From: an uncultured virus (IMG/VR IMGVR_UViG_3300002038_000007)
Taxonomy: Duplodnaviria; Heunggongvirae; Uroviricota; Caudoviricetes
Length of the DNA stretch: 20,000 nt
IMG/VR virus record: IMGVR_UViG_3300002038_000007
Direction: 5' to 3' (one strand)
The position numbers and the translations under genes were made by a program. Positions 1 through 19,877 of the stretch are shown here, piece after piece. How positions within the stretch are numbered: the stretch's first letter is position 1; each line of letters opens with the position of its first letter. The notes beneath the pieces are model-generated. The model saw only the letters and a list, made by a program, of their open reading frames with translations. It made no database searches and was not told where the DNA came from.

Positions 1-35
1 CTTTTGGAGCCGAGCTTGGCGAGCGAAGCATTGGC

Positions 36-620
36 GTGATGTTCTTTTGGTATGCCAGCTTTTTTGTTGCCGAGATGATCTTGATTGTCCTTGGTGTCTA
101 TATTGCCATTCTTTGGGTGCAGATAATATTAGGTGCGATTGCCACGATCCTTTCGATTTTTGCTCTTCTTCGAAACATCAACAAGTCGGCCCTTAGGCAA
201 GTAGAGCTCGCCGAATTGACCGCGGCGGCTGCCAATAAGATTGATCGGGACGACAAAAAAGCGAAGATTCTCCGTGACCCTCTTGCTGCCGCAAAGCAGA
301 AGAAGAAGCTTGCCGAGCTCGCCGACAAACATCAGGCGATGATGATCATGACCATCGTTGATTTTTTCCTGGCGATTTCCCATGGGGTTGCTTGCGTCTT
401 ATTGTTGGGGGATGGCCACGGCCTTTGGGTTGACGTGCTCGCCAGCTTCACGTTTTTAGCGACCGGGTTTTGGATGACCATCCTCGGCCACACCACGGGC
501 TATGGTAATCCAGGACACCATCCCGACGAGCCCAATGACCACGCTGTTCGTGCAGAGCCAAGGTCCTCTGTGACACAGCTCTTGCTAGAGGCGCGCAAAC
601 GGCGCGAGGAAGGCTTGTGA
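36..620 (+). CDS. Hypothetical multi-pass membrane protein (true start may lie upstream of the window)
   Basis: ORF with about 4 hydrophobic segments separated by a charged helical loop; start uncertain at the window edge. Confidence 0.6.
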   Translation: MMFFWYASFFVAEMILIVLGVYIAILWVQIILGAIATILSIFALLRNINKSALRQVELAELTAAAANKIDRDDKKAKILRDPLAAAKQKKKLAELADKHQAMMIMTIVDFFLAISHGVACVLLLGDGHGLWVDVLASFTFLATGFWMTILGHTTGYGNPGHHPDEPNDHAVRAEPRSSVTQLLLEARKRREEGL

Positions 621-666
621 AGCCTTAGCCAATTGACCCAGTCACCGAGCGGAGTAAAATACTGTT

Positions 667-1005
667 ATGGAAGAAAATAATGATCTCACTCTTCAGGGCC
701 TGTTCCTGGCTGTTGGCGGCATAAAAAAAGAGGTCGTTGCCTCCTTGGCTAAAATAGAGGGAACGTTGGCTGCCCATACCCTAAGCCTGGCCGGTATGAA
801 CAAGCGACTTGTCCGCATCGAAGAGCAGTTGTCGAGCGCTCACGATGAACGGCAGGCCATGCGCGATGCTATCGATGCCCTCCCTTGCTTTAGCCAGGTC
901 AAGGGGGTGGAGGATGGACAAGGCAAGTTGGCTGCCGAGATCCGGAAGACCAGCAACAAAGTCGCCGATCTAAAAAGAAGAGTTGGCGAATTGGAAAAGG
1001 CTTGA
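667..1005 (+). CDS. Hypothetical coiled-coil protein
   Basis: GGAG upstream of ATG; heptad-like charged helix; stop overlaps the next start (TGATG). Confidence 0.7.
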   Translation: MEENNDLTLQGLFLAVGGIKKEVVASLAKIEGTLAAHTLSLAGMNKRLVRIEEQLSSAHDERQAMRDAIDALPCFSQVKGVEDGQGKLAAEIRKTSNKVADLKRRVGELEKA

Positions 1006-1313
1006 TGGCTGGTGGCAAGCGGCGAAACGAAGCTTTGCGTGGTAAATCGTGCCCGACATGCAAGGCTGTTCTTGACGCGGCTGCCGCGGGCGACGGATCG
1101 GATAAGGAGCCTCAGCCAGGCGATGTAACGGTTTGTTTTAGGTGCGGCGCGGTGCTCCAATTTATGATTGGTCTTGCCCTAATACCGGCGCCTGATAATG
1201 TCTTGGTTGAGTTGGCTGGCGACGAGAGTTTCAAAAGAGCGCTATCCATTCAACAGGAGATATCAGAAGCAATTAGAAAAAAAGAAAAGGGGCCGAAGCC
1301 CCTCCTCTTCTGA
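1005..1313 (+). CDS. Zinc-ribbon hypothetical protein
   Basis: CPTC and CFRC Cys pairs; translationally coupled to the upstream ORF. Confidence 0.65.
   Translation: MAGGKRRNEALRGKSCPTCKAVLDAAAAGDGSDKEPQPGDVTVCFRCGAVLQFMIGLALIPAPDNVLVELAGDESFKRALSIQQEISEAIRKKEKGPKPLLF
1277..1303 (-). terminator. Rho-independent terminator of the parMR operon
   Basis: Minus strand reads AGGGGC-TTCG-GCCCCT (C-UUCG-G tetraloop) followed by a T-rich tract, about 25 nt after the parR stop. Confidence 0.85.
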
Positions 1314-1329: not shown

Positions 1330-1563
1330 CTAATCTAAGGCCCCTGCCAGATCGATCTTCGCCGCCTCGACCTCTTCAGTGGCGGCGATCGGCGGCTTCC
1401 CTGCTATGAACTGCTCAACACACACAAACTGATGGGCACCAAGCGTTTGGAAGTGCTTCAGGAGCTTTGCCCAATCACGCTCGTCGATTTGGTCAAGCAA
1501 CCGGCAGACAGTTCGATCGCCGACCTCATCAAGCGTGACGGTAACTCGACGTTTCTTAGCCAT
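1330..1563 (-). CDS. parR: ParR/StbB-like centromere-binding adaptor (ribbon-helix-helix)
   Basis: KKRRVTVTLD...DRTVCRLLDQI resembles the N-terminus of plasmid R1 ParR (StbB); overlaps the parM stop; small size. Confidence 0.75.
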   Translation of the reverse strand: MAKKRRVTVTLDEVGDRTVCRLLDQIDERDWAKLLKHFQTLGAHQFVCVEQFIAGKPPIAATEEVEAAKIDLAGALD

Positions 1564-2554
1564 GGGCACCAGCCAGCATCAAGAAGCCTCGGAGATTGGC
1601 GCTGACCGGGTTCTCCATAACCACGATGGTGGGGCCGCTGATGTGGTTTTTCAGCTCAGCACCAGGGTAGATAGCGCCTCCGCCGCTTACCAATATAGTG
1701 TCGATGTTTTTCAATGACCCCAAGCACCCGGTTGCGTCGGTGACGATGTCTTTGGCGATGGTGTCAGCATGCCTTTTGGCAATGTCGCTAAGATCGACCG
1801 TCGCGCCCCACTTTTCGAAGGATGTTTCGCCGTTTCGGAACGCCTCGTCGATTTGAGAAGGAGACACCTCAAAGTCGTAAGAGGTAGCTACCTCCTTGGC
1901 AACTGCCTCACAAACGGCTCGCATCGCGGCCTCGGTTGACGTGGAGTGATCAAGGTTGACTTTCCCACGAACGATCAGCGCAATGTCCGTGGTGCCGTAG
2001 CCAATGTCGATGACAAGCAGACGTTGGCGCTTAAGATCATCGGCGTGATCTTGAAAATAGAGCGCGCCGCTGCCGAGCGGCTGATTAGCGACCAGGACGT
2101 CATCGACGGTGAATTCCTGCCCTCGGATTTCGAATGTTCCAGCGAATGCCGCCTTCAGGTATTCCTTGGCCGGTGAGTTGAACTCTCTTGTTGGCAGCCC
2201 AAGCACCATCTTGCTGATTCTCGGCTCACCAAGACGGAAGAGCGTTTCGAGGTAGAGAGCGTGATAGTCAGGGGACACCGCAAACATCGCGCCTTGGTGA
2301 CGCACATGCTCAGTTCCGTCAGGCTCAAAGCCGGCGTAATACGGCACACCCTCAACGCTCAGCGGTTCGTCTTTCTCGCCAGAGAACCCAGCATTGACCC
2401 GTTTGGCAGGGGCCGCGCCGCTAGGCATCCACAAGAGGTCACCCGCCTTCCCATCAGCCATCACCATGGCCTTGGTGCTACCATAGCCAATGTCCGCGGC
2501 GGCGGTCACGACGCTAGGGGCTGCATTCGATCTGATCTTAGTAACTGCTGCCAT
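1556..2554 (-). CDS. parM: ParM/StbA family actin-like plasmid segregation ATPase
   Basis: Actin-fold motifs ADIGYGSTK, LGLP, NQPLG, IDIGYGTTD, VSGGGA and SANLRGF; 332 aa. Confidence 0.93.
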   Translation of the reverse strand: MAAVTKIRSNAAPSVVTAAADIGYGSTKAMVMADGKAGDLLWMPSGAAPAKRVNAGFSGEKDEPLSVEGVPYYAGFEPDGTEHVRHQGAMFAVSPDYHALYLETLFRLGEPRISKMVLGLPTREFNSPAKEYLKAAFAGTFEIRGQEFTVDDVLVANQPLGSGALYFQDHADDLKRQRLLVIDIGYGTTDIALIVRGKVNLDHSTSTEAAMRAVCEAVAKEVATSYDFEVSPSQIDEAFRNGETSFEKWGATVDLSDIAKRHADTIAKDIVTDATGCLGSLKNIDTILVSGGGAIYPGAELKNHISGPTIVVMENPVSANLRGFLMLAGAHG

Positions 2555-3096: not shown

Positions 3097-3449
3097 TTAA
3101 GGCAAGGAGGAATTTTAAAGAGGATCGCGTAAATAAATAGAGAAAAATGTATATAGAGGCAGCTTGCAACCAATGTTATCTCGTTGAAATAAAAGAAAAC
3201 ACGGCCAATTCACTACTAGCAGTAAAATAATACGTTTTCCGACAGGTTTTTACAGTTGAAAAACGACGATGTTATGAGTTACACATGAATCATCAGACAA
3301 CAAGCTGTTGTCACTATGAAAAAAGAAGCGACGTAGGAGAGAAGCGTCAGATGCGAGGATGAGGAGCCAGGGTTTGTAACCGCCCTGGCTCCCCACCACT
3401 AAAAGGCGGCCGGGACGCCGCCTTAACACCACACGCGGAGCTATCGCGC
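3097..3449. other. AT-rich intergenic region with several inverted repeats; candidate oriT/oriV and relaxase-operon leader
   Basis: Non-coding and AT-rich 3097-3320; IRs at 3296-3312, 3363-3392 and 3403-3424; immediately upstream of the relaxase-like gene. Confidence 0.5.
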
Positions 3450-4448
3450 ATGGCCTTGGAAGGTTTCGCCGAAAAACACATCGGCGGCAAGAGTAAACGG
3501 GTTTTTGGACGACCGTTTGAAGGCGACGCCCACGCAAATGGGTTGTTGGCGCTTCATCGCCTTGGGCCGTCGTTGCCTCGGCATTTTGCCGATCACGCGG
3601 GCCTGAAGGTCAGCTCGGTCGAACGACGCATTCTCCCAGCCTATGCCAAACGAGACATCCCTCTTGTCAAGTCAGTGCCTTTGACTGGCACTGGCGTTGG
3701 CACTGGCGGTCGGCCGGTCCTTCTCTACGCTCTCACCAAATACGGCTATAATGAGTTGCTGGAATGCGCCAACGCCAATTGGCCAGAGGAAGAGCCGGAA
3801 GCCGCACTTGGCCATTTCATCAAGCCTCCTGACCATGTCCGGTGGAAGCTAACCACTGATCATGATCTTGTCACACGGGATATTTTACTAGCTGCGGATC
3901 GAGATGCTCGGCATCTAGTTGGCACCCGCTTGATCGATCAAGTGCCAGAGTTTCGCCACTGGGGAGGCAAGCCATCGCCAACGGCGATTATGACCCCCCT
4001 TGATCGTCGCATGAAGCCAGACGCCGCCAATGTGTTGCAGCGCGGAAATATTTCCTTTGCCGATGAGATAGAAATCGATCTAGGCACCGAAGCGCTGGTG
4101 ACCAACAATCCTGATCGGGTTTTTGAGACGATTGAAGGCAAGATAAGGTCCTATTGGAGCGTGCTCGCTGCTGGTCTGGTCAAGGCCAAGTACCAGGTTG
4201 AAAGCCCGATCTTTCGGGTTCTATTTGTGACGACCAGCTTAGCTCGAGCTAAGCACATCGCGGAACTTGTTGCTGATCTTGCTAGTGAGGGAGCTCTGGA
4301 AAGTCTTGTTGCTGGCAACATGGAAGTCACCCCCCACGACATCTTTTTGGCAACCACCATCGAGCAGGCCAAGGCGGCGTTTTTTGATAACCACTGGATC
4401 AAGCCTGATCTTTCAACAACAGCTCTTGCCGAAAGGGCGGTGTCATGA
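3450..4448 (+). CDS. Replication-relaxation (Replic_Relax, PF13814-like) PD-(D/E)xK relaxase
   Basis: N-terminal wHTH-like region ending YALTKYG; HDL motif; KPDA...EIEIDLGTE...KIRSY and FRVLFVTTS..RA motifs typical of this family; GGAG RBS. Confidence 0.8.
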   Translation: MALEGFAEKHIGGKSKRVFGRPFEGDAHANGLLALHRLGPSLPRHFADHAGLKVSSVERRILPAYAKRDIPLVKSVPLTGTGVGTGGRPVLLYALTKYGYNELLECANANWPEEEPEAALGHFIKPPDHVRWKLTTDHDLVTRDILLAADRDARHLVGTRLIDQVPEFRHWGGKPSPTAIMTPLDRRMKPDAANVLQRGNISFADEIEIDLGTEALVTNNPDRVFETIEGKIRSYWSVLAAGLVKAKYQVESPIFRVLFVTTSLARAKHIAELVADLASEGALESLVAGNMEVTPHDIFLATTIEQAKAAFFDNHWIKPDLSTTALAERAVS

Positions 4449-4819
4449 CCGTCGCACGGATTACTTTCAGAAGCAGGCCTAGAACACGGTTTGTCATCAA
4501 GTGGCCCTTTCTCTACGGCTTTTGGGCGACGACAACGCTCAAGCTTGATGTCCCTGATCGCTACGCCGATGAGATGTTTGTCCAAGGTCACAACAAGACC
4601 ACGCTGTGCGTTGTGAAAGCTGGATTCGGCGGCAGAATGATTCGGGTCACGCTCAAAAAACTTATGCGGAAACGAGGCCTTAAACTTTGGGCATGGAGAG
4701 AAGCCACGCTGTGGCTCGCCATTCGAGCGATCGATACTGCGCTCGATAAAAAAAAGCAGGAGCTTGACGGGCAGCGCTTCAGTGAGACGGCAACTGACAT
4801 TGGCCGAGAGATCACGTGA
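4445..4819 (+). CDS. Hypothetical basic protein in the relaxase operon
   Basis: ATGA overlap with the relaxase and GTGA/ATG overlap with the ATPase. Confidence 0.65.
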   Translation: MTVARITFRSRPRTRFVIKWPFLYGFWATTTLKLDVPDRYADEMFVQGHNKTTLCVVKAGFGGRMIRVTLKKLMRKRGLKLWAWREATLWLAIRAIDTALDKKKQELDGQRFSETATDIGREIT

Positions 4820-6762
4820 TGGCGATCAACTGGCTAAAAAAACAGTTTTTAGGAAAAGCACGGACGGTCGTTGTAGCACCAGACGTGACGTCGTCAGTCT
4901 CATTGAACGATGGTGAGTGGCCGTACAAAAAGGCCGACCTCGAAGAGATCAAGACGCGCCTTGCTTTTGTTGCCTATAAGGCCGCTTGGAAAAGACCGCC
5001 AAAGGCGGAAACGCACCAAGCACTTTTGCCGTTCGCTGATTTTCTTATTGATCGATCAGGCATGTTCGTGAAAAGCCCAAAGGGCCAGGCGGCGCTAACT
5101 GCTAGGCAATATCGATATGAGGATGGGCGTTGGATGAAAGCATCCATCCAGTTGCTTAAGTTGATCTTCTGCGAATTGCCGAAAGAGCTTGGCGTCGACC
5201 ACATGGGCATCGAAGTTCATGCTTGGGCGCTCTCAAAGAGTCCAACCAAGCTTGTTAAAAAGGTCGCTGGTTTTATGGCCGAAGAGGGCGGCCCGGCAAC
5301 TGGCGTTATGCAGACGTGGCAAGATTCGACGATTCTTCGAATGCGCGAAGTCAAGGGCGTTGAACTCCGTCACCTTCCTGACCTCAGTACAGCCTTCCCA
5401 GCTTGGCGTGATCGGCACGCAACGGATTTGATGGACGAGTCTTTTAGAGGTTCGCCATTCAAGGAACTGCTAGAGCTCTGGGTACCGATCACAATCCCTG
5501 ATGAGGCAACCCGAACTCACATCCACGGTATGGGACCAACCGGGTGCGGCAAGACCACTTTCAATGAAGCAACCATCCTTAAGCATATCGGCAAAAAAGG
5601 CATGGTCCTATTTGACACCAAAGGCGGTATGGCCGCACGACTTATTCGCCATTCAGGATCCGCAGAACACATCCTTGAAGTCAACTTTGACCATGAAGAT
5701 CAACGGCCCTTGTTTAACCTCTTGCAGCCAGCGATCGGCGGCAAGCCGAATAAGGTTGCAAAGACGCTGAAGTTTATCTTGGCCGGCTTTGGCGTCGAGC
5801 TAACTTCCCTGCAAGAGATTGTCTTGGAGCTAGCCGTTAAAATTGCCGTGACGGTTCCTAACGCGACCATCTCGACTTTGGTCAAGGTGCTGACCAATGA
5901 AGGGTATGCCCAGCGTTACGTGGTGAATTGCTCGGAAGATGACCAGGAGTGGTTCGCGTCTCAGTATGACAGCACCAGATGCCAGGCCAGGCGCGATGAG
6001 CTTTTAACCAAGCTTGGCGCGATTAAAAATGCTGAAGAAATGAACGGACTGTTCAACGGCGATCGCAACACCCTCGATATCAAAACGCTCTTGGATAGCA
6101 GAAAGCTGGTGATCTTCACCATCAACAAAGAACATTTCCAGGAATACACCCAGATCATCAGTCGCGCCGTGATCAACAGCATCAATGCAGCGATGTGGAA
6201 GCGCGACATGCCGATCGGCGATCAACCGCTCTGGATCATCTTTGTTGATGAGTTGCGTGATGTCATCGGCAGCCTTGATGATAGCTTGATTGAGCAGATT
6301 GCTGACCAGGGCCGCGAGCGTGGCGTTTGTTTGCACTTCACCCATCAGCGGCTCAAGCAAATGAGCACAGCTATCCAAGACGCTATTTTGAACAACGCTT
6401 CGGTGAACTTTTACGCCAATATCGATCCAAAGGAAGCCAAATGGCTTGCCGATCGTATGGGCTGCAAGTCAACCGACATGCTCAACATCCGCAAGGATGA
6501 CACTTACCTTTATTTTTGCCTCTCGATCAAAGGCTATGCCCACGCTAGCAAGTCTCGAATCAGATGGAATCACGTCAAAGGCCGAAAGGCGCTCAGCGAA
6601 GCTGCCATGGGCAAGCAACGCGACGCACACAAGGCTTATTGGGCATCGGTTAATGGCCGTTCTGTCCAGCTCTCCAGCGGAGAAAAAACACCTCTTCGCG
6701 TTATAGAAAATCCGGCCACGATCGAGGGCGAAAATATTATTTCCCTCCCCTGGAGCGAATAG
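4816..6762 (+). CDS. HerA/TraD/TrwB-like (type IV coupling-type) P-loop ATPase
   Basis: RTHIHGMGPTGCGKTT Walker A; LFDTKGG; IIFVDE Walker B; GRERGVCLHFTHQRLKQ arginine-finger/Q motif; no obvious N-terminal TM helix. Confidence 0.85.
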   Translation: MMAINWLKKQFLGKARTVVVAPDVTSSVSLNDGEWPYKKADLEEIKTRLAFVAYKAAWKRPPKAETHQALLPFADFLIDRSGMFVKSPKGQAALTARQYRYEDGRWMKASIQLLKLIFCELPKELGVDHMGIEVHAWALSKSPTKLVKKVAGFMAEEGGPATGVMQTWQDSTILRMREVKGVELRHLPDLSTAFPAWRDRHATDLMDESFRGSPFKELLELWVPITIPDEATRTHIHGMGPTGCGKTTFNEATILKHIGKKGMVLFDTKGGMAARLIRHSGSAEHILEVNFDHEDQRPLFNLLQPAIGGKPNKVAKTLKFILAGFGVELTSLQEIVLELAVKIAVTVPNATISTLVKVLTNEGYAQRYVVNCSEDDQEWFASQYDSTRCQARRDELLTKLGAIKNAEEMNGLFNGDRNTLDIKTLLDSRKLVIFTINKEHFQEYTQIISRAVINSINAAMWKRDMPIGDQPLWIIFVDELRDVIGSLDDSLIEQIADQGRERGVCLHFTHQRLKQMSTAIQDAILNNASVNFYANIDPKEAKWLADRMGCKSTDMLNIRKDDTYLYFCLSIKGYAHASKSRIRWNHVKGRKALSEAAMGKQRDAHKAYWASVNGRSVQLSSGEKTPLRVIENPATIEGENIISLPWSE

Positions 6763-6764
6763 CC

Positions 6765-7169
6765 ATGCGCAACGTATCCCCCTACCTCGTTGCCCTCATC
6801 GTTTATGCTGGCCTGCACAGTCTTGTTAACCCGTTGCCAGGCGCGGATTGGGTAACGGTCAGATGTCAGCATCTTGGATGCAGCCCTAATGACGTCGCCT
6901 TTTCGCGAGCGTTGCTGATCTGGTTTGGGTTCAGTCTTGTGACCGTCATCGTTTTTGGTCTTTTGCTCCTATTCAGGCATTTCTTGTTGTTCGTGTTGCT
7001 TGTGACGGTAGCTGGCGGGGTGAGCGTTTTGGTGATGGGCCTTGCAACAAGCGCTGGCGACAACCTAGCGTTTTATCGTGGCGTGAGCTGGATGCTTGGG
7101 TCGTTCTTGATGATCATGGGAGCGCCTGTGACCATGGCCGCTTCTCGCTTTGGGAGAGCGCGTCGATGA
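6765..7169 (+). CDS. Hypothetical multi-pass membrane protein
   Basis: About 4 hydrophobic helices; 2 nt after the ATPase stop; ATGA overlap with the next gene. Confidence 0.75.
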   Translation: MRNVSPYLVALIVYAGLHSLVNPLPGADWVTVRCQHLGCSPNDVAFSRALLIWFGFSLVTVIVFGLLLLFRHFLLFVLLVTVAGGVSVLVMGLATSAGDNLAFYRGVSWMLGSFLMIMGAPVTMAASRFGRARR

Positions 7170-7798
7170 TCTTCGTTACAGATGCGGTTATCAAAAACCT
7201 GATCACGATCGCTATTCTTGTGATTGCAGGGTTTGCTCTAGGCGCATTGCTTCGCCGCATGAAAAGCGCTGCCGAGAATTATTGGCTGACGCCGGGGATT
7301 GCTGAGCTGACACCGTGGATGCCAGAACCAGGCAGGCCACTGAGGCCTGATCGGTTATGCCCGCGCATGACGGCGGTGTGTGACAATGGCGAAGCCGGCA
7401 TCCGCTGGATGAGGTGTCTCAACCTTATAACAGTCGGCGCTTGGGTAGTGTTTGTTCGGCGAGCAATCGGCGTCAGTTACGATGTCGAGACGATCGTTGG
7501 CGCTGCCTTTTCGTTTAGCCTGTTGAGCACCATCACCACAGCCAGTTTTTTTGTTACGCGAGCTCTGGTTCGTAGTGAGCGGCTTATGTTCGTATCCGGC
7601 AAAGATACTGTTTCTGGCATGTATGATGACTGGCCGAGTTTGGCTACTGCTCCTTCCGACGCTGATTTCATCAATGAGTCAGAGTCAGAGATCGATCGGC
7701 CCGCAAAGCCCAATGGCGAGACTCGCGTATTCACAATCCCAGGCGAAGGTGATTTCAATTCTGATCAATGCGAGGGCGATCAATGGGCCGCGAGATAA
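7166..7798 (+). CDS. Hypothetical membrane protein with acidic C-terminal tail
   Basis: About 3 TM segments; coupled to neighbours. Confidence 0.75.
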   Translation: MIFVTDAVIKNLITIAILVIAGFALGALLRRMKSAAENYWLTPGIAELTPWMPEPGRPLRPDRLCPRMTAVCDNGEAGIRWMRCLNLITVGAWVVFVRRAIGVSYDVETIVGAAFSFSLLSTITTASFFVTRALVRSERLMFVSGKDTVSGMYDDWPSLATAPSDADFINESESEIDRPAKPNGETRVFTIPGEGDFNSDQCEGDQWAAR

Positions 7799-8370
7799 GC
7801 ATCAGTCGCGCGCGATATCTAGCGACGGAAACTGAGAAAGCGTGCGCATCAAAACTACCTCGTCCGACCGGCGAGATTGATGATATTGGCGGTCCTATCC
7901 CCTGGCAGATTAAGCACCTGCCCATGATGATCGTTGGCGGGGTTGTTGCCATCGTTTTGGTTTTAGCAACCGTGATTGGCGTCATGGTGATGAATGCCAA
8001 TAGCCAAGACGGCGCAGCATCACGCCAAGTCGACCAGTCGCTTAAGCTGGCTGAGAAGTCGCTTGAGGTGGTCGAAAAGATGGTCGAGGCCAATCGAGAA
8101 AAGGATCTTAAACAAGCGGAGCTGGATAAGGCGAGAGAGGCAGCAAGGACTCGCGCTGAACGTCGTGTTGAGAAAGAAGAGAGTGGCGGCTTTTGGGTAT
8201 GGATGCCTCTTCTCTTGGCTGCCGCGCTGTTTGTTATCGTTTCCGCGCAGTTTAACAATCTTTGGGGTGCTGGGATCGCGCTTATGATCCTTGGTTTTAT
8301 TGTGGTCATAGGGATGATCCCTGGCGCTGCCAAAGTGGTTGGGTTTGTTATGACAGGCGGCGGCGGATGA
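7783..8370 (+). CDS. Hypothetical membrane protein (TM, coiled coil, 2 TM)
   Basis: GAGGG RBS before ATG 7783; hydrophobic segments flank a charged helix; ATGA overlap with the VirD4-like gene. Confidence 0.75.
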   Translation: MGREISISRARYLATETEKACASKLPRPTGEIDDIGGPIPWQIKHLPMMIVGGVVAIVLVLATVIGVMVMNANSQDGAASRQVDQSLKLAEKSLEVVEKMVEANREKDLKQAELDKAREAARTRAERRVEKEESGGFWVWMPLLLAAALFVIVSAQFNNLWGAGIALMILGFIVVIGMIPGAAKVVGFVMTGGGG

Positions 8371-10199
8371 CTGGTGCTTGGTGGAGGCGACTGCGCGAAC
8401 GACAGGCGGCAAATCGTGAGCTTGGCAAGGCCTCAGAAGGCGGTGAGCAGGGCGCTTTTGAGCCTGGCCGCAAGGATGCACTTGCTCCTTACAAGGGGAA
8501 GAACGGCAAGGGCGGCTGGACTGTGGGCAAGACCCATGAATCCTATGTCAAGAAGGGCGCGAAACGGGAGTGGCTGACGACCGAGGAAGAGCGTCACATT
8601 GCGATGATTGGCAATACCCGTGCTTGGAAAACGGTTTCTCAACTGGCTTATCACATCGCAAGGAGCCCAACCAACAAGGTCGTGTTTGATCCCAAGTGCG
8701 AATTCTATCTCATGTTCGCCAAGGTTTTGGCAGCAAAGGGGTGGAAGGTTCATCTGTGGGATCCGTTCTTGAAGGCGGCGACGGAGCTTGGCGTGCCTAG
8801 GGCGCCGTTCACCACGGACTACAACCCCTTTCTCGACATGGCGAACACTGAGCTTGGCGCATTTGATCCTGGCTTGCCGAACCGCATTACTGAATTGGTC
8901 AACCTGATGGTCTCCCTTGGCAAGGAAGGTAAAGATTCCGGTATGCAGTTTTGGAACATCAAGACCAAGGAGGTTGTTTCAGCCCTTTGGGCATTTGGCT
9001 TGATCTACCGTGATAAAGAGGCTGAGGCAGCTTATGATGAGGCTGAGGCAGCGCTTGAGGCAGGCGATGAAGACGCGCTTACCAATCAGCACCTCTGGGA
9101 TTTGATCGCCAAGAGAAACATTCTGTTTGCTTCTGAATTTCCCAATCTTGATCTTGAAGATCAGATCTCTCTTTTGGAAGAGATGGCGAACATTAAGGAA
9201 ACGCTCAAAGCCGAAGCAGAGGAAGCCGGCATGGAGCTATTTTATCCGTCAGTCGTCGACATGATTGTAAAGGGAGCCAAGACCGGTCTTCGCCTTGCAA
9301 AGGACGACGGCGCGATTGGCGGTACCGTTTTCAACAGCCTCTTAGATATGATCAGCGCGTCATTTGAATGGATCGACAGTCCAGTCCTGAAGCATCACTT
9401 GCGTGGCTATGATCAAAACTTTCATCCTTCCATGCTCAAGACAGAAGAAAAGGTCATCCTGTTTGCGGTAATCCCTGAAGAAAACATGGAAAGTCATGGT
9501 GCTTACATGCGCATGGCGTTTACCTCGATCGTCGACAGCGTGATGAAAACCCCATGGGGCACGAAGACCCTTGATGATGGTCGAAAGGTGCCGATCAAGC
9601 GCTACAAGATCGATCTTATTTGCGAAGAAATCGCGCAGTGGGGTCACATGAAGGCCTTGAAGCGAGCGCTTGGCATGGGGGCTGGCAAGGGGCTCCGCGT
9701 TGTTGTTGTCTTGCAAAATATGTCGTCACTGATCGACGTTTATGGCAAAGCGCTATGGGAGTTCCTAATTGCCAATAGCTATCAGATTTTAATTGGCGGC
9801 GGTGACAATGAGACCGGCGAATACTTCTCAATTAAGAGCGGCAAAACCAGAGCTCGGAATCTAAAGACCAAAAAGCGATCGGGCGAGATGGTTCCCGTTT
9901 ATACCATCGATATGCTTTGGAACACAGTGCATGAAAGCCGCAACACCGGGCTATTGTGCGAGAACGGGAAAGAGTTCATTGAGTTTGAAAAAATCAGGTA
10001 TTACGACGAAGCCGAATCCGGCCTGAAAAAGTACATCGACTACACCCCGCATCCTGATCATGTGACCGACGACGACACGGCGCCCAAACGTCATGTTCCG
10101 CGAGAGCTTCTTGCTCACAGCAAGGGGGAGATCAATGGCGGACCCCGTCACATGCAGTTCGGCGGCGGCGGGCAAAAGCAAATAGAAACCCACCACTAG
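8367..10199 (+). CDS. VirD4/TraG-like type IV coupling protein with degenerate Walker motifs
   Basis: RHIAMIGNTRAWKT, VVFDPKCE, DPF...YNPF, FW, LICEEIAQWG, GAGKGLRVVVVLQNMSSLIDVYG and DNETGEYFSIKSG match the VirD4 layout; ATG 8367 overlaps the upstream stop. Confidence 0.8.
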   Translation: MTGAWWRRLRERQAANRELGKASEGGEQGAFEPGRKDALAPYKGKNGKGGWTVGKTHESYVKKGAKREWLTTEEERHIAMIGNTRAWKTVSQLAYHIARSPTNKVVFDPKCEFYLMFAKVLAAKGWKVHLWDPFLKAATELGVPRAPFTTDYNPFLDMANTELGAFDPGLPNRITELVNLMVSLGKEGKDSGMQFWNIKTKEVVSALWAFGLIYRDKEAEAAYDEAEAALEAGDEDALTNQHLWDLIAKRNILFASEFPNLDLEDQISLLEEMANIKETLKAEAEEAGMELFYPSVVDMIVKGAKTGLRLAKDDGAIGGTVFNSLLDMISASFEWIDSPVLKHHLRGYDQNFHPSMLKTEEKVILFAVIPEENMESHGAYMRMAFTSIVDSVMKTPWGTKTLDDGRKVPIKRYKIDLICEEIAQWGHMKALKRALGMGAGKGLRVVVVLQNMSSLIDVYGKALWEFLIANSYQILIGGGDNETGEYFSIKSGKTRARNLKTKKRSGEMVPVYTIDMLWNTVHESRNTGLLCENGKEFIEFEKIRYYDEAESGLKKYIDYTPHPDHVTDDDTAPKRHVPRELLAHSKGEINGGPRHMQFGGGGQKQIETHH

Positions 10200-10208
10200 G
10201 AGAATGGA

Positions 10209-10409
10209 ATGAAAGAAGATCAAGGCGTGATTCGGTCCAAAGAGAAAGTCTGGGATCCAAGCACGCAGAAATGGGTTGTGATCAAGCAGAAGCACAAGGT
10301 CACGCCCGGACAGGTCGGCGCAGTTACAGCCGGCATTCATGGGCAGCAAATCCCGCCGCCCCAAACTGAAAAGCCGAAGCCTCGGCGGATCAGAACCCTT
10401 TTTGGATAG
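10209..10409 (+). CDS. Small basic hypothetical protein
   Basis: AGGAG RBS; in operon; Pro/Arg/Lys-rich C-terminus. Confidence 0.7.
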   Translation: MKEDQGVIRSKEKVWDPSTQKWVVIKQKHKVTPGQVGAVTAGIHGQQIPPPQTEKPKPRRIRTLFG

Positions 10410-10418
10410 GAGAGAGAG

Positions 10419-10742
10419 ATGGTTGCAGCACACAAAACAAGAGAGACCAGCGCCGCATGTCCTGGTGGCAATTGCCCACAAGTTCGACACGTGAACAAGA
10501 ACCGCAAGCCCGCGACGTCGACCCCGGAGTCACCTTCGAAGCCAACGCCCCCCGCGGTGGCGCCCACGCCAGACCCCAAGATCAGGATGCAAGCGGAAGC
10601 CCAGCAAGCTCTTGCTAGCACTCTTGCTGCAATCAATCGTTCGCGAGCGGCACAGAAAGAGCCACCGATGACGATGAAGGAGCTGGTTAGCACCCCAGCG
10701 CCAACCCAGAAACCCGCACCTAAGCGGCCGGGCGTCGGCTGA
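10419..10742 (+). CDS. Pro/Ala/Lys-rich hypothetical protein
   Basis: AGGAG RBS; low-complexity; ends KPAPKRPGVG. Confidence 0.7.
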   Translation: MVAAHKTRETSAACPGGNCPQVRHVNKNRKPATSTPESPSKPTPPAVAPTPDPKIRMQAEAQQALASTLAAINRSRAAQKEPPMTMKELVSTPAPTQKPAPKRPGVG

Positions 10743-10744
10743 CC

Positions 10745-11383
10745 ATGCCGCGCCGTCGCACCAGATACAGGTCAAGGAAACGGGTTCCGTTTTGGCAGCG
10801 CCGATCAAGGCGCGCGAGCGGGTTTGAGGTTCTTTGGTATCTGGTGCTCGGCATGGCATGGCTCATCGTAGCGTTGATCAAGGCTCTATGGCGGCTGGCT
10901 CGACGGTATAGAACAAAAGGACAGCCAACCGCCCTTATCACCGGCAAGAGAACGACGTCAGACCTCCGTAAAATGCCAGAATGGTGTGAGCACTACAGAT
11001 CGGCGAGATCAGCTTTCGTGTTCACCTGCGATCAGGTGCTCGGACCAGAAAATCTGCGCTGCGCCTGCTGTCAAGTTACCTTCAAAGTAAGAGGGCGTCG
11101 CGGGTTTCACGTAGATCATATAAGGCCCGTCGCCACACACCCTCATCTGAGTTTTGACGTCACCAATTTTCAGCTGCTTTGCAGCCATTGCAACACGAGG
11201 AAGCGGGCCAACCAACCACTCACGCCGGAGCGGCGATCAAAGAAGCTTGTGCTTGCGTTGGAACGCGAACGTCGCGAATGGCTGAGAAGGCATGGCGACG
11301 TCGATCCCATTTATAAGCTGCTCGATGCTCACGAAGTCGAGCCGGGCAGTTGGGCAACTCAAAAGGAGAAAGGATATGGCTAG
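10745..11383 (+). CDS. HNH endonuclease with Arg-rich N-terminus and one transmembrane helix
   Basis: CACC...HVDHIRP...NFQLLCSHCNTRK HNH zinc motif; hydrophobic stretch VLWYLVLGMAWLIVALIKALW. Confidence 0.85.
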   Translation: MPRRRTRYRSRKRVPFWQRRSRRASGFEVLWYLVLGMAWLIVALIKALWRLARRYRTKGQPTALITGKRTTSDLRKMPEWCEHYRSARSAFVFTCDQVLGPENLRCACCQVTFKVRGRRGFHVDHIRPVATHPHLSFDVTNFQLLCSHCNTRKRANQPLTPERRSKKLVLALERERREWLRRHGDVDPIYKLLDAHEVEPGSWATQKEKGYG

Positions 11384-11864
11384 AAAACCAGGTGTTATCA
11401 AAAAGCTGTGGCGTGCAGGCAAGGCCGATTTAGCGCGCACCAATACCAACTTTCGAAAATTCACGACAGAGCAAAACAGGAAAAAGCGGGTGCGGCCCGT
11501 TAGCCAAGCGGAGGTTGCGGTCAAGGCGCTTCCTGAATTGATCAAAGGGACAGCGAATGACATTCGCGCCTATGCGCAAAAGGCGAGAAACTTGATGGGG
11601 AAGAAGCCCGTGGTGACGCCGCCAGCCCCAAAGGCCAAGCCAGCCAAAAAGCCCAATCTTTATGAAAGAGGGCTACAGCGGCACAGCAATAACCCTGTTC
11701 AAACTTCCGGCAAGGACATCATTGCCAAACAAAAGGCAGCGCACGAACAAGAGATTGCGGTCCGACGAGCCAAGGCGGAAGAGGCGCTGAAGAAAGTCGC
11801 CAAGCCTGCGGCTAAACCTAAGCCGGCAAGGAAGCCTGTGGGTGCAATCAAGGTTCCTGCATAA
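11376..11864 (+). CDS. Highly basic Lys/Ala/Pro-rich hypothetical protein
   Basis: AGGAG/AAGGA RBS before ATG 11376; KAKPAKKP and KPAAKPKPARKP repeats; TAATG coupling to the next gene. Confidence 0.75.
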   Translation: MARKPGVIKKLWRAGKADLARTNTNFRKFTTEQNRKKRVRPVSQAEVAVKALPELIKGTANDIRAYAQKARNLMGKKPVVTPPAPKAKPAKKPNLYERGLQRHSNNPVQTSGKDIIAKQKAAHEQEIAVRRAKAEEALKKVAKPAAKPKPARKPVGAIKVPA

Positions 11865-12607
11865 TGGACAGCGCAGCAATTGAAGAGGCGCTTAAAGCTA
11901 ATCGCAAAGCGCTCCGCCGCGCGAAGGTCAGCCGCCAGCGCATCAAGGTGACGCCACATGCTCTTATTCTAACGCTATCGATCTTTGCTATAGCTGTAGG
12001 GGCGGTAGGGGCTTTTGTTTGGCCAAAGGCGACTGATACGCGGGGCTACTCATTAGAGGCAATCAACGCGCAAGCCCTTGATCGTCGTGGGCAAGAGATC
12101 GAAGCCTGGCCGGCGTTTTCGATCATCAACGTTAAGCCCTTTCCGCCTGAGTCAGACGTTGATCTTGTGCTCGTTGTAGGTGGGGGCACTTTTCAAGCGG
12201 CTGTTGCTAACAAAGGAGAGCTGATCTTAGAGGATGGTGAAATCAGCATCGAAGATGCGGATACAATTGAAGTGCTAGGTACGCGACGGGTAGGTCGCGG
12301 AACGAAAGGCCCCTCCCTACTTTTTGGTTTTTTGCCAAAGCCGTTGCGCGCCTTGGCGGCAATACCCTTGACACAAGGCAGCTTAATAAACCTCGAAGAA
12401 GCTGCCCGATCGACAATAACGGGGTTCCCGATCTTTATCGTTCCAGATGCAGATCGGCTTCTTTTTAATGACAGCAGTGTTGACAAGATCGAACGTACCA
12501 AATCGGGACTCGTCGTGACCTTTAGCGACGGATTCACAGGCTTAGATATAGCATTCATGTTGCTGATGGGCGTTGGCTTAATTGGCGTGGGGAGATCGTT
12601 TGTATGA
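11864..12607 (+). CDS. Hypothetical membrane protein (two TM helices flanking a probable extracytoplasmic domain)
   Basis: Hydrophobic helices near both termini; overlaps neighbours. Confidence 0.75.
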   Translation: MDSAAIEEALKANRKALRRAKVSRQRIKVTPHALILTLSIFAIAVGAVGAFVWPKATDTRGYSLEAINAQALDRRGQEIEAWPAFSIINVKPFPPESDVDLVLVVGGGTFQAAVANKGELILEDGEISIEDADTIEVLGTRRVGRGTKGPSLLFGFLPKPLRALAAIPLTQGSLINLEEAARSTITGFPIFIVPDADRLLFNDSSVDKIERTKSGLVVTFSDGFTGLDIAFMLLMGVGLIGVGRSFV

Positions 12608-13272
12608 TTGTTGCTGAGCATGCGGCTAGAAATCTTGGCGAGGTCTCGCAACTCAATGCAGCCAAGCGAGCCTTGATGCGCGGCGCGTCCAATGTCGAAG
12701 CCTACAACAAGTTCAAATGGTATGCTGATGAGAACGGCATCATGAAGAGACCGCTATCCAACAACGGGGTGACGATTGCCCCGCCCAAAAGAGGGGAGGT
12801 CAAGCGGCTTAACCAGGTTATCAATCACCCTGCGTTTTTTAGGGCCATACCGGATGCCGGCCGCTGGACAGCGAGCGTGCGTCCTCTTGGTGGCGGTGTT
12901 CAGGGCATGGCCCAGCCGTGGCGACGGCATATCACCTTGTCACCACGCGCTGCTCAGGATCGCTCAACGTGGCTGCACGAAGCTACCCATGCGGGGCAAG
13001 CCGCCCAACGACTTCCTCGAAACGACCGGGGGACCAACCCGAGAGCTGCAGGGAGCTTCGCCGCCTATCAGGGTCAGCTTGGAGAACATGGTGCGCGCGT
13101 ATCAGGTGCGGCTATCTCCCCTGCACAAAAAGCCCAGATCATGATGAAGCGGGTTAGGGGCAAGCCAAGGGTCCGATTTAAGCCGCCGCCAGCCGCCGCC
13201 CCTAACAAAAAACGACCCTTGCCACCGCAACAGCAAAGGCCATCAAAAAATCTGCCGAGGCCTGGTCAATAA
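12604..13272 (+). CDS. LPD23-like / zincin-like (HExxH) metallopeptidase domain protein
   Basis: WYADENG, LNQVINHPAFFRAIPD, STWLHEATHAGQ, RGTNP and YQGQLGEHGAR resemble the LPD23-plus-metallopeptidase pattern of polyvalent proteins. Confidence 0.65.
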   Translation: MIVAEHAARNLGEVSQLNAAKRALMRGASNVEAYNKFKWYADENGIMKRPLSNNGVTIAPPKRGEVKRLNQVINHPAFFRAIPDAGRWTASVRPLGGGVQGMAQPWRRHITLSPRAAQDRSTWLHEATHAGQAAQRLPRNDRGTNPRAAGSFAAYQGQLGEHGARVSGAAISPAQKAQIMMKRVRGKPRVRFKPPPAAAPNKKRPLPPQQQRPSKNLPRPGQ

Positions 13273-13291: not shown

Positions 13292-13327
13292 AACCGGAAC
13301 GCCGTGACTAAACGCAGCGTTCCGGTT
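13292..13327. terminator. Hairpin between convergent operons (probable terminator)
   Basis: AACCGGAACGC...GCGTTCCGGTT 11-bp stem just after the operon end. Confidence 0.7.
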
Positions 13328-13382: not shown

Positions 13383-13919
13383 TTATTCAGATTTTTGAGT
13401 CAATTCCCAGCCGCGGGCTTTCGCGATCGCCTCGGCCAGATCGAGCTTAGCCAGGCTTTCTTTGCAAAGAGGGCAATCTTTGCCACGGGTGTGATTTTGC
13501 CAGTGCTGCCGAGCTTCGTCGATATAGAAGTTGCGGCAACCGGCTTTGATAAAGATTCCGCTCTTATCTAAAAATGCGTGGTGTGGCCAGCCATCTTGCC
13601 GGTAGCCAAGGTCAATAAACGTATCTGGCAGGTTTGTCTCGCGCAGGTTTGCCCCGCGCAGGTTTGTCTCGCGCAGGTTTGCCCCGGACAGGTTTGCCCC
13701 GGACAGGTTTGCCCCGGACAGGTTTGCCCCGTCGAGGTTTGCCCCGGACAGGTCCCCGTCGAGGTTTGCCCCGGACAGGTTTGCCCCGGACAGGTATGCC
13801 CCGGACAGGTTTGCCCCGCGCAGGTTTGTCTCGCGCAGGTTTGCCTTCTCCGTCTGGCTTAGATCGGCATAAGGCGTCCCGCCTAGGAGTATTCCTAGAA
13901 TAGCGCTGATGTCAGTCAT
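13383..13919 (-). CDS. Pentapeptide-repeat protein with phage-type C-terminal domain
   Basis: About 15 A(N/Y)LxG-type repeats; C-terminal R.DG...IKAGCRNF..EAR.HW pattern seen in phage pentapeptide proteins; start ATG 13919 with AAGGGA RBS. Confidence 0.88.
   Translation of the reverse strand: MTDISAILGILLGGTPYADLSQTEKANLRETNLRGANLSGAYLSGANLSGANLDGDLSGANLDGANLSGANLSGANLSGANLRETNLRGANLRETNLPDTFIDLGYRQDGWPHHAFLDKSGIFIKAGCRNFYIDEARQHWQNHTRGKDCPLCKESLAKLDLAEAIAKARGWELTQKSE
13629..13845. repeat. 15-bp tandem repeat encoding the pentapeptide units
   Basis: Units such as CAGGTTTGCCCCGGA and CAGGTTTGTCTCGCG in tandem, with one 12-bp unit. Confidence 0.9.
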
Positions 13920-14154
13920 GTTGTTGTTCCCTTTTTTCAAGATGAGTTTGAGCGTTCTCGACGATGCGCATTAACAGCATGTAGTTGGCATAGCCAATCT
14001 TTGCTTCAGAGCTGGCGCGAGCCCAACAATTTAAGGATTGAGCAGTGATCCCCATACAGGCGGCGAGTTCCCGCCTTGACAGCCCAGTCCTTCGATAAAG
14101 AGATAGAATTGCCGATTTGGGCGGCCTTTCCCATTGTCTAGCATCAATGCTCAT
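13912..14154 (-). CDS. XRE/Cro-like HTH protein
   Basis: RRTGLSRRELAACMGITAQSLNCWA HTH; GGAG RBS; overlaps the pentapeptide gene. Confidence 0.8.
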   Translation of the reverse strand: MSIDARQWERPPKSAILSLYRRTGLSRRELAACMGITAQSLNCWARASSEAKIGYANYMLLMRIVENAQTHLEKREQQHD

Positions 14155-14175
14155 AACGATTCTCCAAAAAAGATG

Positions 14176-14217
14176 ATATATTGATTTTATAGATAAAAAA
14201 CAAATTCATCAATATAT
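14176..14217 (-). promoter_or_regulatory. Sigma70-type promoter overlapped by a 10-bp inverted repeat
   Basis: Minus strand TTGATG(14212-14207)-17 nt-TAAAAT(14189-14184); IR ATATATTGAT(14176-85)/ATCAATATAT(14208-17). Confidence 0.65.
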
Positions 14218-14245
14218 TTTTTTTCACAAATAGCGAATTTTTATC

Positions 14246-14275
14246 TTGACCAACCGCAAGTAGATCGTTTAGGTT
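14246..14275 (+). promoter_or_regulatory. Putative promoter for the rightward accessory operon
   Basis: TTGACC-18 nt-TAGGTT, about 30 nt upstream of the ORF at 14305. Confidence 0.45.
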
Positions 14276-14304: not shown

Positions 14305-14460
14305 ATGGCTAAGCGACGTTCACAAAAGATCAGGCGAGCTCCCGCTCCGACTGTCAGCAAATACGCAGCGAAGGGGCCTTCTTACAAATACAAGACGGTC
14401 CCGTCAGGCCCTTGTCGTCGTGCTGTGGCTGAACGGACTCAAACGGAAAGCCGGTCATGA
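14305..14460 (+). CDS. Small basic hypothetical protein (51 aa, below the ORF-track cutoff)
   Basis: GGAG RBS; MAKRRSQKIRRAPAPTVSKYAAKGPSYKYKTVPSGPCRRAVAERTQTESRS; ATGA overlap with 14457. Confidence 0.65.
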   Translation: MAKRRSQKIRRAPAPTVSKYAAKGPSYKYKTVPSGPCRRAVAERTQTESRS

Positions 14461-14831
14461 CTAGCGCGTTCAACTTTACCGTTGCCGCCATCGTCGCTGG
14501 GATCTTGGGCGTCGCTGTTTTTGATGATGCTTTGTCAGCCGAAGCGGATAGCCACCAAGACGCTGTGAATCATGCGGCCGTTCTTGTTCAGGATCATATC
14601 CCAGAGTGCGACGCCAGTAGCGGGGAGTCAGTCGAGGCGTGGTTTTGGTGCATTGGCGATGTATACGACTTTGCGCTTTATGAAGCCGGCATTACCAAGA
14701 CCATGGCTCCGGCTCTTTCCGATCAACTCGCCAAGATTGGTTCGCTTTACGACGAACAATCTGTGACGTTCACAGAGACCGCCGAACGCATGCAAAATGC
14801 GATTGCGACCGCCTTAGCGTCGCCAAGATAA
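14457..14831 (+). CDS. Hypothetical exported protein
   Basis: N-terminal hydrophobic signal/anchor; acidic mature part with two Cys. Confidence 0.7.
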   Translation: MTSAFNFTVAAIVAGILGVAVFDDALSAEADSHQDAVNHAAVLVQDHIPECDASSGESVEAWFWCIGDVYDFALYEAGITKTMAPALSDQLAKIGSLYDEQSVTFTETAERMQNAIATALASPR

Positions 14832-14889: not shown

Positions 14890-15588
14890 ATGAAATACCT
14901 TCCTCTGGCTCTTAGCCTTACCTGCGTTGCAGCAATCCACGCGCATGGCGCAGAGCTTCTCGACCCGATCAATGCGACGGACACCAGCTATTGCATTTCA
15001 TGCGCGCAAGAAGACGCTGGCTATGATGCCAGATATCAAGCTGGCCGCGCACAAGAGTCCATTGGCATTCTCGATGCTAACGACCGCACCATCAACCGCG
15101 ATCTGATTGCCGCCGAAAAGGCGATTGCCGCACTGACGACGGAAAGTCAGCAACGTTTCGCCCAAACCGAGCAGACGATTGCTCGCGAGGTACGTCTCGG
15201 GAATGAGCGTCTATTGGCCATCGAAACTGTCTTGAGCACGCCGTCAACGCCGGCTGGTACTGTCCATGCCATCAACAGGCACGATCAGCGCCTATCGGCC
15301 CTTGAAGGCGGCCTTGCGGGCTTGCGTGACGATCTCGACAATATCGACCAAGCATCGCGGCGCCGAGACGCCAGTCTTGCGGCCATGCCGGATCTACACA
15401 TTGATGACGGCGACCGCGTTGCCATCGGCCTTGGTCTTGGCGAGTCAGGAGGGGAAGCGGCTTTCGGGCTTGGGGCCGTGATCAAGAGTCGTTTCGAGCG
15501 GCAAACGGTTTTTGTTGCCGCCAAGGCCGGCACTGACGCCAGTTTCAACGAACATGCTATCAAGGCGTCCGTCAATCTGAGCTTCTAA
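14890..15588 (+). CDS. Small trimeric autotransporter-like protein (YadA anchor domain)
   Basis: Signal peptide MKYLPLALSLTCVAAIHAHG; coiled-coil stalk; ASLAAMP linker; four Gly/Ala-rich beta-strands; C-terminal VNLSF. Confidence 0.75.
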   Translation: MKYLPLALSLTCVAAIHAHGAELLDPINATDTSYCISCAQEDAGYDARYQAGRAQESIGILDANDRTINRDLIAAEKAIAALTTESQQRFAQTEQTIAREVRLGNERLLAIETVLSTPSTPAGTVHAINRHDQRLSALEGGLAGLRDDLDNIDQASRRRDASLAAMPDLHIDDGDRVAIGLGLGESGGEAAFGLGAVIKSRFERQTVFVAAKAGTDASFNEHAIKASVNLSF

Positions 15589-17775: not shown

Positions 17776-17787
17776 TTGGAGCAAATC

Positions 17788-18021
17788 ATGAGACTCAAAA
17801 AATTCGAACCCAAGGATATCGAGAAAGCCCAGCGAAAGCTGGGCCTATCCCAGGTTAGGTTTGCAAATATCTTAGGTTACACGTCCAGTCGCCGCATTCG
17901 AGAGCTCCGTGATGGCGACAGAACTCTAGGCAACTCCACCACGATCTTGCTGCATTTGTATCTAGGCAATGTGACGATCGGTGAGTTGAAAAAAAGCGGT
18001 ACAAAGATAGTTCTTGACTAA
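17788..18021 (+). CDS. XRE/Cro-like HTH regulator
   Basis: RKLGLSQVRFANILGYTSSRRIRELRDG HTH; GGAG RBS before ATG 17788. Confidence 0.8.
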   Translation: MRLKKFEPKDIEKAQRKLGLSQVRFANILGYTSSRRIRELRDGDRTLGNSTTILLHLYLGNVTIGELKKSGTKIVLD

Positions 18022-19841: not shown

Positions 19842-19877
19842 CGTCACTACTCCTATCTGATCATAACAGGCATCATA

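Follow-up and report, generated by a model that had tools for sequence, protein, structure and literature searches.

A putative plasmid mobilisation operon with two anchor-less coupling-type ATPases in an uncultured-virus record

We describe a 20,000-nucleotide stretch of DNA recorded as an uncultured virus (IMG/VR IMGVR_UViG_3300002038_000007; the whole stretch is called the window below), in which 13 plus-strand open reading frames (ORFs) in a row, g1 to g13, fill positions 3450-13272. We favour, with moderate confidence, the view that this region is the DNA-processing and coupling operon of a plasmid, that is, a DNA transfer and replication (Dtr) or mobilisation operon, which needs a channel encoded elsewhere. 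The gene layout and the family assignments of g3, g7, and g10 are directly observed. What is unusual is the combination: two different coupling-type motors, both without a membrane anchor, bracket three private membrane proteins in one operon of a very rare clade. MOBC is the least studied class of relaxases, and few plasmids carry a coupling protein of their own. The operon provides a natural setting in which to ask whether a separate protein can provide, in trans, the anchor that normally holds a coupling protein in the membrane, and how a mobilisable element comes to work with a mating channel that is not its own.

Organization of the operon

The genes of the operon (Table 1) are tightly packed. 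The junctions from g1 to g13 measure -4, -4, +2, -4, -16, -4, +9, +9, +2, -8, -1, and -4 nt, in agreement with an earlier reading of this DNA made from the letters alone (the sequence-only reading), which had noted 13 co-oriented genes, nearly all overlapping or no more than 10 nt apart. Three starts were reassigned to better-supported codons: g6 to 7783 (its ORF opens at 7768), chosen for a GAGGG ribosome-binding site; g7 to 8367, which forms an ATGA overlap with g6 and is the point from which the four clade members can be aligned at their N-termini; and g11 to 11376. ORFs of at least 100 aa on the plus strand occupy 97.7% of the region; in 200 shuffled versions such ORFs average 9.3% and never exceed 34.3%. 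The longest operon ORF runs to 649 codons, and no shuffle yields more than 241. A Pfam family at E <= 0.01 is present in 4 of the 13 operon proteins.

Structured DNA lies on both sides of the operon. The closing hairpin, also named by the sequence-only reading, has perfect arms and folds at -27 kcal/mol (z = -4.08), and none of 200 shuffles folds as well; it has no T-run and sits between the operon and a convergent pentapeptide-repeat gene. Upstream of g1, the inverted repeats 3360-3372/3383-3395 (13 nt, 92%) and 3403-3410/3417-3424 (8 nt, 100%) form two hairpins, and the fold of 3350-3440 reaches -44.2 kcal/mol (z -5.13), again with 0/200 shuffles as good. These hairpins are a candidate transfer origin or regulatory site. 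A promoter and terminator consensus scan stayed at shuffle level (7 vs 8.1 expected and 18 vs 14.7), and Rfam gave 0 matches in the window.

Two coupling-type ATPases without a membrane anchor

Judged by its sequence, g7 is a clear VirD4/TraG-type coupling protein (type IV coupling protein, T4CP). It matches T4SS-DNA_transf (PF02534) with E 2.7e-21 (76.4 bits, cut-off 20.1) and TraG-D_C with E 1.7e-13 (51.1 bits, cut-off 22); a CD1115-family VirD4-like model is matched with E 1.7e-21, below its cut-off. Under the g7 profile, the TraG-type T4CPs of small mobilisable plasmids from alphaproteobacteria score 56.5-69.5 bits and TrwB scores 24.2 bits. Among annotated proteins, the closest to g7 are T4CPs from such small plasmids, with ~22% identity and E values of 1e-11 to 1e-6. 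These nearest plasmid T4CPs have a Walker A motif of the form APTRxGK and 1-3 N-terminal hydrophobic segments, as counted in a crude Kyte-Doolittle scan in which segments may merge helices. Hydropathy detects no N-terminal membrane helices in g7 or in its 3 close relatives. Walker B reads CEE in g7 and CDE in the relatives, and homologues at 48-50% identity keep the full length, the catalytic lysine, and Walker B.

The other ATPase, g3, has intact Walker A and B motifs, with G242, G244, K245, D477, and E478 invariant in the family alignment. The Kyte-Doolittle scan finds no hydrophobic segment in it, and thus no N-terminal transmembrane domain. In Pfam, g3 reaches 21.2 bits for TrwB_AAD_bind (cut-off 20.5) and 18.5 bits for TraG-D_C. 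A profile of 24 g3 family sequences gives R388 TrwB 28.0 bits (E 4.3e-8, Z = 1000), VirB11 8.2 bits, and VirB4 1.6 bits, and a profile search collects 5,507 remote relatives at E <= 1e-3. Among the best 150 relatives, 57 were scanned for families: 46 carry TrwB_AAD_bind, often with DUF87/HerA, 5 carry only DUF87, T4SS-DNA_transf, or TraG-D_C, and 6 carry nothing. The VirB4 family (PF03135 / AAA_10) is absent from g3 and from all 57 scanned relatives. Since the profile prefers TrwB and the relatives carry no VirB4 family, we read g3 as a coupling-protein-like ATPase; its assignment as VirB4 was considered and rejected on these figures.

Structure is less informative for g3: the top Foldseek matches are TrwB, DndH-C, VirB4, and HerA together, from a weak model (predicted local distance difference test, pLDDT, 60.7) that cannot discriminate among them. 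In the wider g3 family, a hydrophobic segment precedes Walker A in 26 of 81 testable members by crude hydropathy; on this measure, anchor absence is common in the family. g3 also matches phrog_5156 (E 1.9e-18), and tblastn finds no match to it in 50,697 phage records. The kinship of g3 and g7 is only remote (hhalign 82%, E 1e-5) and confined to the surroundings of the P-loop. The sequence-only reading had listed a HerA/TraD-like ATPase and a VirD4-like protein, two coupling-type ATPases in the same operon, and both assignments stand.

The putative relaxase

We regard g1 as a putative relaxase of the MOBC/Replic_Relax kind, predicted to combine a winged helix with a restriction-endonuclease-like domain. 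Replic_Relax is described as equivalent to the MOBC class of relaxases (PMC5357655), and an N-terminal helix-turn-helix (HTH) or winged-helix architecture is reported for MobC-like relaxases (PMC3357382). By BLASTP, g1 residues 162-321 align (E 2e-5) across the PD...ExD.GTE core with a Replic_Relax protein of a Sulfitobacter plasmid, which itself scores E 1.8e-16 in Pfam; this core match is pairwise only. The 4-member clade shows no variation at D191, D205, E206, or E208. In an AlphaFold model of low confidence (pLDDT 58.4), the stretch from residue 25 to 115 resembles MarR/PadR winged helices (Z up to 7.3, root-mean-square deviation 3.5 A over 81 residues), and a Foldseek search with the g1 model returns the same winged-helix matches. 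Searched against plasmids by tblastn, g1 finds no match, and the Sulfitobacter protein used as a query among plasmids finds only itself. The earlier description of g1 as a PD-(D/E)xK Replic_Relax-type protein is therefore upheld in part: a weak Replic_Relax match and the core alignment speak for it, whereas the match lies below the Pfam cut-off and the nuclease fold is not confirmed. The adjacent g2, which has no match in Pfam, NCBIfam, PHROGs, or PADLOC, is a possible relaxosome accessory protein.

Conservation and relatives

Relatives of the operon proteins are few. The clade counts 4-5 members among 5.8 billion protein clusters, and for g3 the close proteins number 5, itself included. Identities of the homologues are 50-60% for g1, 45-57% for g3, and 48-50% for g7. 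The homologues of all three include entries whose longest contigs measure 17,886 and 24,828 bp, which suggests that the trio of g1, g3, and g7 occurs together on at least two further contigs. At the DNA level, megablast of the operon against 72,556 plasmids gave no match; scans with the g3 and g7 alignments found no locus in species-representative genomes, JGI metagenomes, or IMG/VR contigs; and a scan of IMG/VR viral contigs with the g1 alignment found no related locus.

Three genes stand in a row on the Sulfitobacter plasmid: a small one, one for a g3-like ATPase, and the genuine Replic_Relax gene. Its ATPase has 699 aa, one N-terminal helix, and 24.7% identity to g3 (E 7e-23). From this row it follows that the pair of g3 and relaxase would be the old core, to which g7 and the membrane genes would be an addition. 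g3-like ATPases occur on Sulfitobacter and Methylomagnum plasmids (NZ_CP081110 10970-14355 and NZ_AP019788 231-1367), both of which are typed 'non-mobilizable'; this suggests that mobility typing misses a module of g3-like ATPase and Replic_Relax. Predictions of plasmid mobility in environmental bacteria are likely to under-count such elements, because the relaxase falls below the Pfam cut-off and plasmids with g3-like ATPases receive that label.

Absence of channel genes and nature of the host

No VirB/Tra channel family was found in the operon, flanking, or antisense ORFs scanned within the 20-kb window, in searches that used sequence only and can miss remote homologues. Likewise, the scan of window ORFs turned up no counterpart of an outer-membrane component, pilin, VirB4, VirB6, or VirB8-10, and the 13 operon proteins show no signal peptide, lipobox, or outer-membrane features. 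The claim of the sequence-only reading that VirB genes are missing thus holds for all ORFs scanned in the window. Identical protein copies are recorded on contigs of 77,447 and 90,356 bp, which places 57-70 kb of the replicon outside the window.

The host is probably diderm and proteobacterial. The main hint is the 232-aa product of ORF 14890-15588 (+), which ends in Phe and combines a signal peptide and a coiled coil with a weak YadA-like anchor at the C-terminus; it looks like a miniature trimeric-autotransporter-like adhesin, and a diderm host is inferred chiefly because of its signal peptide and anchor match. The best tblastn matches of g7 and of two neighbouring gene products, an ArdC and a ParM-like protein, are proteobacterial. 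Together, the ParM-like, ArdC, and YadA-like neighbours point to a plasmid of a diderm host. A single DNA sequencing run, labelled as an algae metagenome, contains the stretch and may be its source; no RNA run was listed with it. Because the operon has nothing to cross a diderm outer membrane, we place the channel elsewhere, in cis or in trans.

Membrane proteins and remaining operon genes

Kyte-Doolittle membrane segments are present in g4, g5, g6, and g12. These four proteins match no family even at E <= 5, and g6 also matches no PADLOC family. In a phmmer comparison of nine small or membrane proteins of the operon with VirB2/3/5/6/8/9/10 and TrwA of R388, the best E value was 1.3 (g4 against VirB2) and is not significant; the membrane proteins were thus not found to map to VirB/Tra components. 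In a protein atlas, the best named cluster for g4 was YWFCY (0.82, chance level), and g12 reached at best 0.77 with unnamed clusters. A complex prediction for g6 with g7 returned no answer (score 0.00).

Among the other genes, g10 is matched by Pfam HNH (E 1.7e-8), by phrog_144 HNH (E 7.2e-11), and by PtuB-like HNH models (down to E 1.1e-9), and has a hydrophobic segment at residues 24-52. The isoelectric points (pI) of g8, g9, and g11 are 10.5-11.2, and g9 and g11 consist of 41-43% Pro+Ala+Lys. The sequence-only reading had described three consecutive membrane proteins (g4-g6), a membrane-anchored HNH protein (g10), basic disordered proteins (g8, g9, and g11), and another protein with two transmembrane segments (g12, hydrophobic at both ends), all of which agree with our results. 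Its LPD23-like peptidase was not reproduced: g13 shows only a HEATH motif and weak matches to DUF6782 (E 0.019) and phrog_13543 (E 2e-4).

Table 1. Genes of the operon and adjoining hairpins in the window.
Feature	Length and pI	Position	Strand	Description
Two GC-rich hairpins		3360-3424	+	candidate origin of transfer (oriT) or regulatory site; 26-90 nt upstream of g1, after AT-rich spacer 3097-3350
g1	332 aa	3450-4448	+	MOBC/Replic_Relax-like putative relaxase; N-terminal winged helix and C-terminal nuclease-like core
g2	124 aa, pI 10.6	4445-4819	+	basic, no family; ATGA overlap with g1, GTGA overlap with g3
g3	648 aa	4816-6762	+	anchor-less coupling-protein-like (TrwB/TraD-type) P-loop ATPase; ~230-aa N-terminal domain
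g4	134 aa	6765-7169	+	~4 hydrophobic helices; no family
g5	210 aa, pI 4.9	7166-7798	+	N-terminal membrane helix, further hydrophobic stretches, acidic C-terminal tail; no family
g6	195 aa	7783-8370	+	one helix, coiled-coil stretch, two C-terminal helices; stop overlaps g7 start (ATGA)
g7	610 aa	8367-10199	+	VirD4/TraG-type coupling ATPase without N-terminal membrane domain; altered Walker A
g8	66 aa	10209-10409	+	basic, no family; AGGAG ribosome-binding site
g9	107 aa	10419-10742	+	basic, Pro/Ala-rich, probably disordered; no family
g10	212 aa	10745-11383	+	membrane-anchored HNH endonuclease
g11	162 aa, pI 11.2	11376-11864	+	Lys/Ala/Pro-rich; no family; ORF opens at 11292
g12	247 aa	11864-12607	+	hydrophobic helices at both ends, ~165-aa domain between; no family
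g13	222 aa	12604-13272	+	HExxH (HEATH) metallopeptidase-like; basic Pro-rich tail
Closing hairpin		13292-13327	.	arms 13292-13302 / 13317-13327, 11 nt, 100% complementary

Proposed mechanism and alternative explanations

In the working that we propose, g1 would recognise and cut the transfer origin, probably at the hairpins 3360-3424; we infer both the activity and the site. g3, as a TrwB/TraD-like hexameric ATPase of a type regularly found with such relaxases, would be the dedicated coupling protein and DNA pump, the role of MobB in the CloDF13 system discussed below, and g7, as a second coupling protein of the VirD4/TraG type, would dock the substrate on a type IV secretion channel. The membrane proteins g4-g6 would probably hold both anchor-less ATPases at the inner membrane, a role suggested only by their position and by the start/stop overlaps. 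The channel (VirB4, VirB6/8/9/10, and pilin) would be supplied by another part of the 77-90 kb replicon or by a conjugative element in the same cell, and g8-g13 would serve accessory or co-transferred functions.

Several observations weigh against this reading. The match of g1 to Replic_Relax (PF13814) has E 4.8e-4 and 20.7 bits, under the cut-off of 25.3, and at E <= 0.1 such a match is found in 1 of 4 clade members, g1 itself. Both fold searches with g1 are filled by the winged-helix part and give no confirmation of a C-terminal PD-(D/E)xK fold there (pLDDT 58). No nicking site was identified at the upstream hairpins. The Walker A of g7 reads GNTRAWKT (residues ~82-89), in which W replaces the glycine before the lysine and the lysine is kept. 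Its relatives have GPTRSGKN, GSTRCGKT, and GATRSNK, the last with N at the glycine position; 2 of 4 clade members are non-canonical. g7 may perhaps not hydrolyse ATP, and the motifs of its clade suggest relaxed selection on ATP binding. The evidence of conservation covers three of the 13 genes, g1, g3, and g7, and the co-occurrence of the trio is suggested by matching contig sizes and not by DNA. Finally, dependence on an external channel is read only from absence within 20 kb, and, with 57-70 kb of the replicon beyond the window, the plasmid may yet be self-transmissible.

Three other explanations compete with the mobilisation operon. The one with the best prospects, though still unlikely, is a composite without joint function, in which g1-g3 are a MOBC module, g7 is a decaying or co-opted remnant, and g4-g6 and g8-g13 are cargo on a shared transcript. 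The Sulfitobacter relative, whose row is limited to a small gene plus those for the ATPase and relaxase, fits such an origin, as do the missing membrane domain and non-canonical Walker A of g7 and its remote relation to g3; plasmids that hold a further MOBC relaxase along with a second T4CP are also on record (PMC9709138). Yet the g7 homologues are full-length, keep the lysine and Walker B, and lie on contigs of the same sizes as the g1 and g3 homologues, which argues for selection on the set, and the tight start/stop overlaps from g3 through g7 suggest co-translation. A function other than conjugation is improbable in our view. In such a reading the proteins would help to replicate or segregate the plasmid, or would form a nuclease/ATPase system at the membrane for defence or exclusion (a HerA-like ATPase with an HNH protein). 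This reading draws on the lack of a recognisable replication initiator among the window ORFs, on the matches of g3 to the defence-system ATPase model mad8 of PADLOC (E 9.5e-12, a further point against mobilisation) and weakly to HerA, on the PtuB-type HNH models matched by g10, and on a phage relaxase-translocase operon without a known role (PMC3357382). PADLOC matches, however, appear in only 2 of the 13 proteins, without any further MADS or Septu component among them; g7 is plainly a T4CP; and both ArdC and the MOBC-type pairing of relaxase and coupling protein are hallmarks of conjugation.

The sequence-only reading had gone further and suggested that this may be an undescribed minimal transfer machine. 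In its strongest form this would be a self-contained, VirB-less DNA-export machine in which g3 replaces VirB4, g7 recruits MOBC-nicked DNA, and g4-g6 with g12 form a new inner-membrane conduit; if it were true, a plasmid would transfer without any VirB-type channel. We hold this to be very improbable. In its favour, a single operon with translational coupling holds two different motors and four membrane proteins of no assigned family, and no known channel gene lies within 20 kb. The trio, moreover, probably turns up again on contigs down to 17.9 kb in size, which leave limited room for a full type IV secretion system (T4SS), and the fold of g3 matches VirB4 about as weakly as TrwB. Against it stand the profile preference of g3 for TrwB (28.0 vs 1.6 bits) with a VirB4 domain in 0/57 relatives, the apparently diderm host of an operon with no signal peptide, lipobox, or outer-membrane features, the large part of the replicon that lies beyond the window, and the dependence of the known MOBC1 analogue on a helper T4SS (PMC7431656). 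What survives of the claim of a non-canonical DNA-transfer operon is therefore its parts list, namely a Replic_Relax-like protein, two ATPases, membrane proteins, an HNH protein, and no VirB/Tra gene in the window. Its self-sufficiency is not supported: a MOBC1 layout that works with a helper T4SS is known, and no outer-membrane, pilin, or VirB parts were found.

Comparison with known systems

The closest known parallel to the mobilisation operon is the MobC/MobB pair of CloDF13 (MOBC1), described as a relaxase with its own coupling protein that needs a helper T4SS and uses the R388 channel (PMC7431656). As here, the plasmid encodes a MOBC-type relaxase together with a dedicated coupling-type ATPase, and the module contains no channel. 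MobB is reported to depend for its function on a membrane domain of three helices (PMC7431656); three is also the number of helices in g6, just upstream of g7. Unlike the present operon, CloDF13 has one ATPase, whereas here there are two, both without a membrane domain, along with three membrane genes and six further genes. A comparison of the CloDF13 record with the window gave no detectable sequence similarity, and the CloDF13 mob ORFs have no Pfam match.

Bacillus phage 0305phi8-36 and SPO1 offer a different parallel, a 'DNA translocation operon' (PMC3357382). In 0305phi8-36, a MobC-like relaxase with an N-terminal HTH stands next to a VirD4-like translocase that has no N-terminal membrane domain, and membrane-binding proteins have genes of their own; these roles were assigned by bioinformatics only (PMC3357382). 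The phage operon shares these three features with ours and differs in being phage-borne, in having a monoderm host, and in having one ATPase. Class 8 of the streptococcal integrative and mobilisable elements resembles the operon in being a compact mobilisation module with a MOBC relaxase (Rel_PF13814/MobC) and a canonical VirD4 coupling protein (PMC5357655). These elements are integrative, belong to monoderm hosts, and use a serine integrase and a single coupling protein (PMC5357655), in contrast to the plasmid, two ATPases, and extra membrane genes seen here.

The nearest annotated relatives of g7, among them the T4CPs of Paracoccus p2 and Aminobacter pcAMD1, are encoded in Dtr modules beside a relaxase. 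They differ from g7 in their N-terminal hydrophobic segments, in their canonical APTRxGK, and in their MOBQ or Ti-type relaxase partners. Two T4CPs on one replicon have been reported for 120 of 623 T4CP-carrying IncA/C plasmids, 9 of which have one protein of the VirD4/TraG group and one of the TrwB/TraD group (PMC9709138).

Neighbouring genes and features

Upstream of the operon lies a ParM/ALP-type actin-like partition gene, 1556-2554 (-), with a small ORF, 1330-1569 (-), beside it. The ParM-like gene matches ALP_N (E 3.9e-16), phrog_691 (E 4.2e-41), and PRTRC protein D (E 6.7e-31, below cut-off); no further PRTRC component was seen in the window. Downstream, the pentapeptide-repeat gene 13383-13940 (-) converges on the operon. 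Its matches to the models for Qnr, MfpA, and PipB score far below the cut-offs, and on this basis its product is not a recognisable Qnr. The plus-strand ORF 13578-13862, with QVCPG repeats, is an antisense shadow of this gene.

An ArdC anti-restriction/zincin gene, 16816-17775 (+), is matched with E 2.6e-40 and 1.3e-47 and is ~50% identical to sphingomonad plasmid copies. Its region also holds small Xre/MqsA-like HTH genes at 17776-18021 (+), 19617-19847 (-), and 13912-14154 (-) and many unassigned small ORFs, an arrangement that resembles a plasmid leading region. AT-rich nested inverted repeats at 14169-14246 (17-nt arms, 82%; 9-nt arms, 100%) sit in the divergent intergenic region between 13912-14154 (-) and 14457-14831 (+), and could be an operator or another origin-like site. 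At the left edge, 3-1313 (+), three co-oriented ORFs without a family encode an edge-cut multi-helix membrane protein, a coiled-coil protein, and a protein resembling a zinc ribbon. These ORFs may close a further operon that extends past the window edge.

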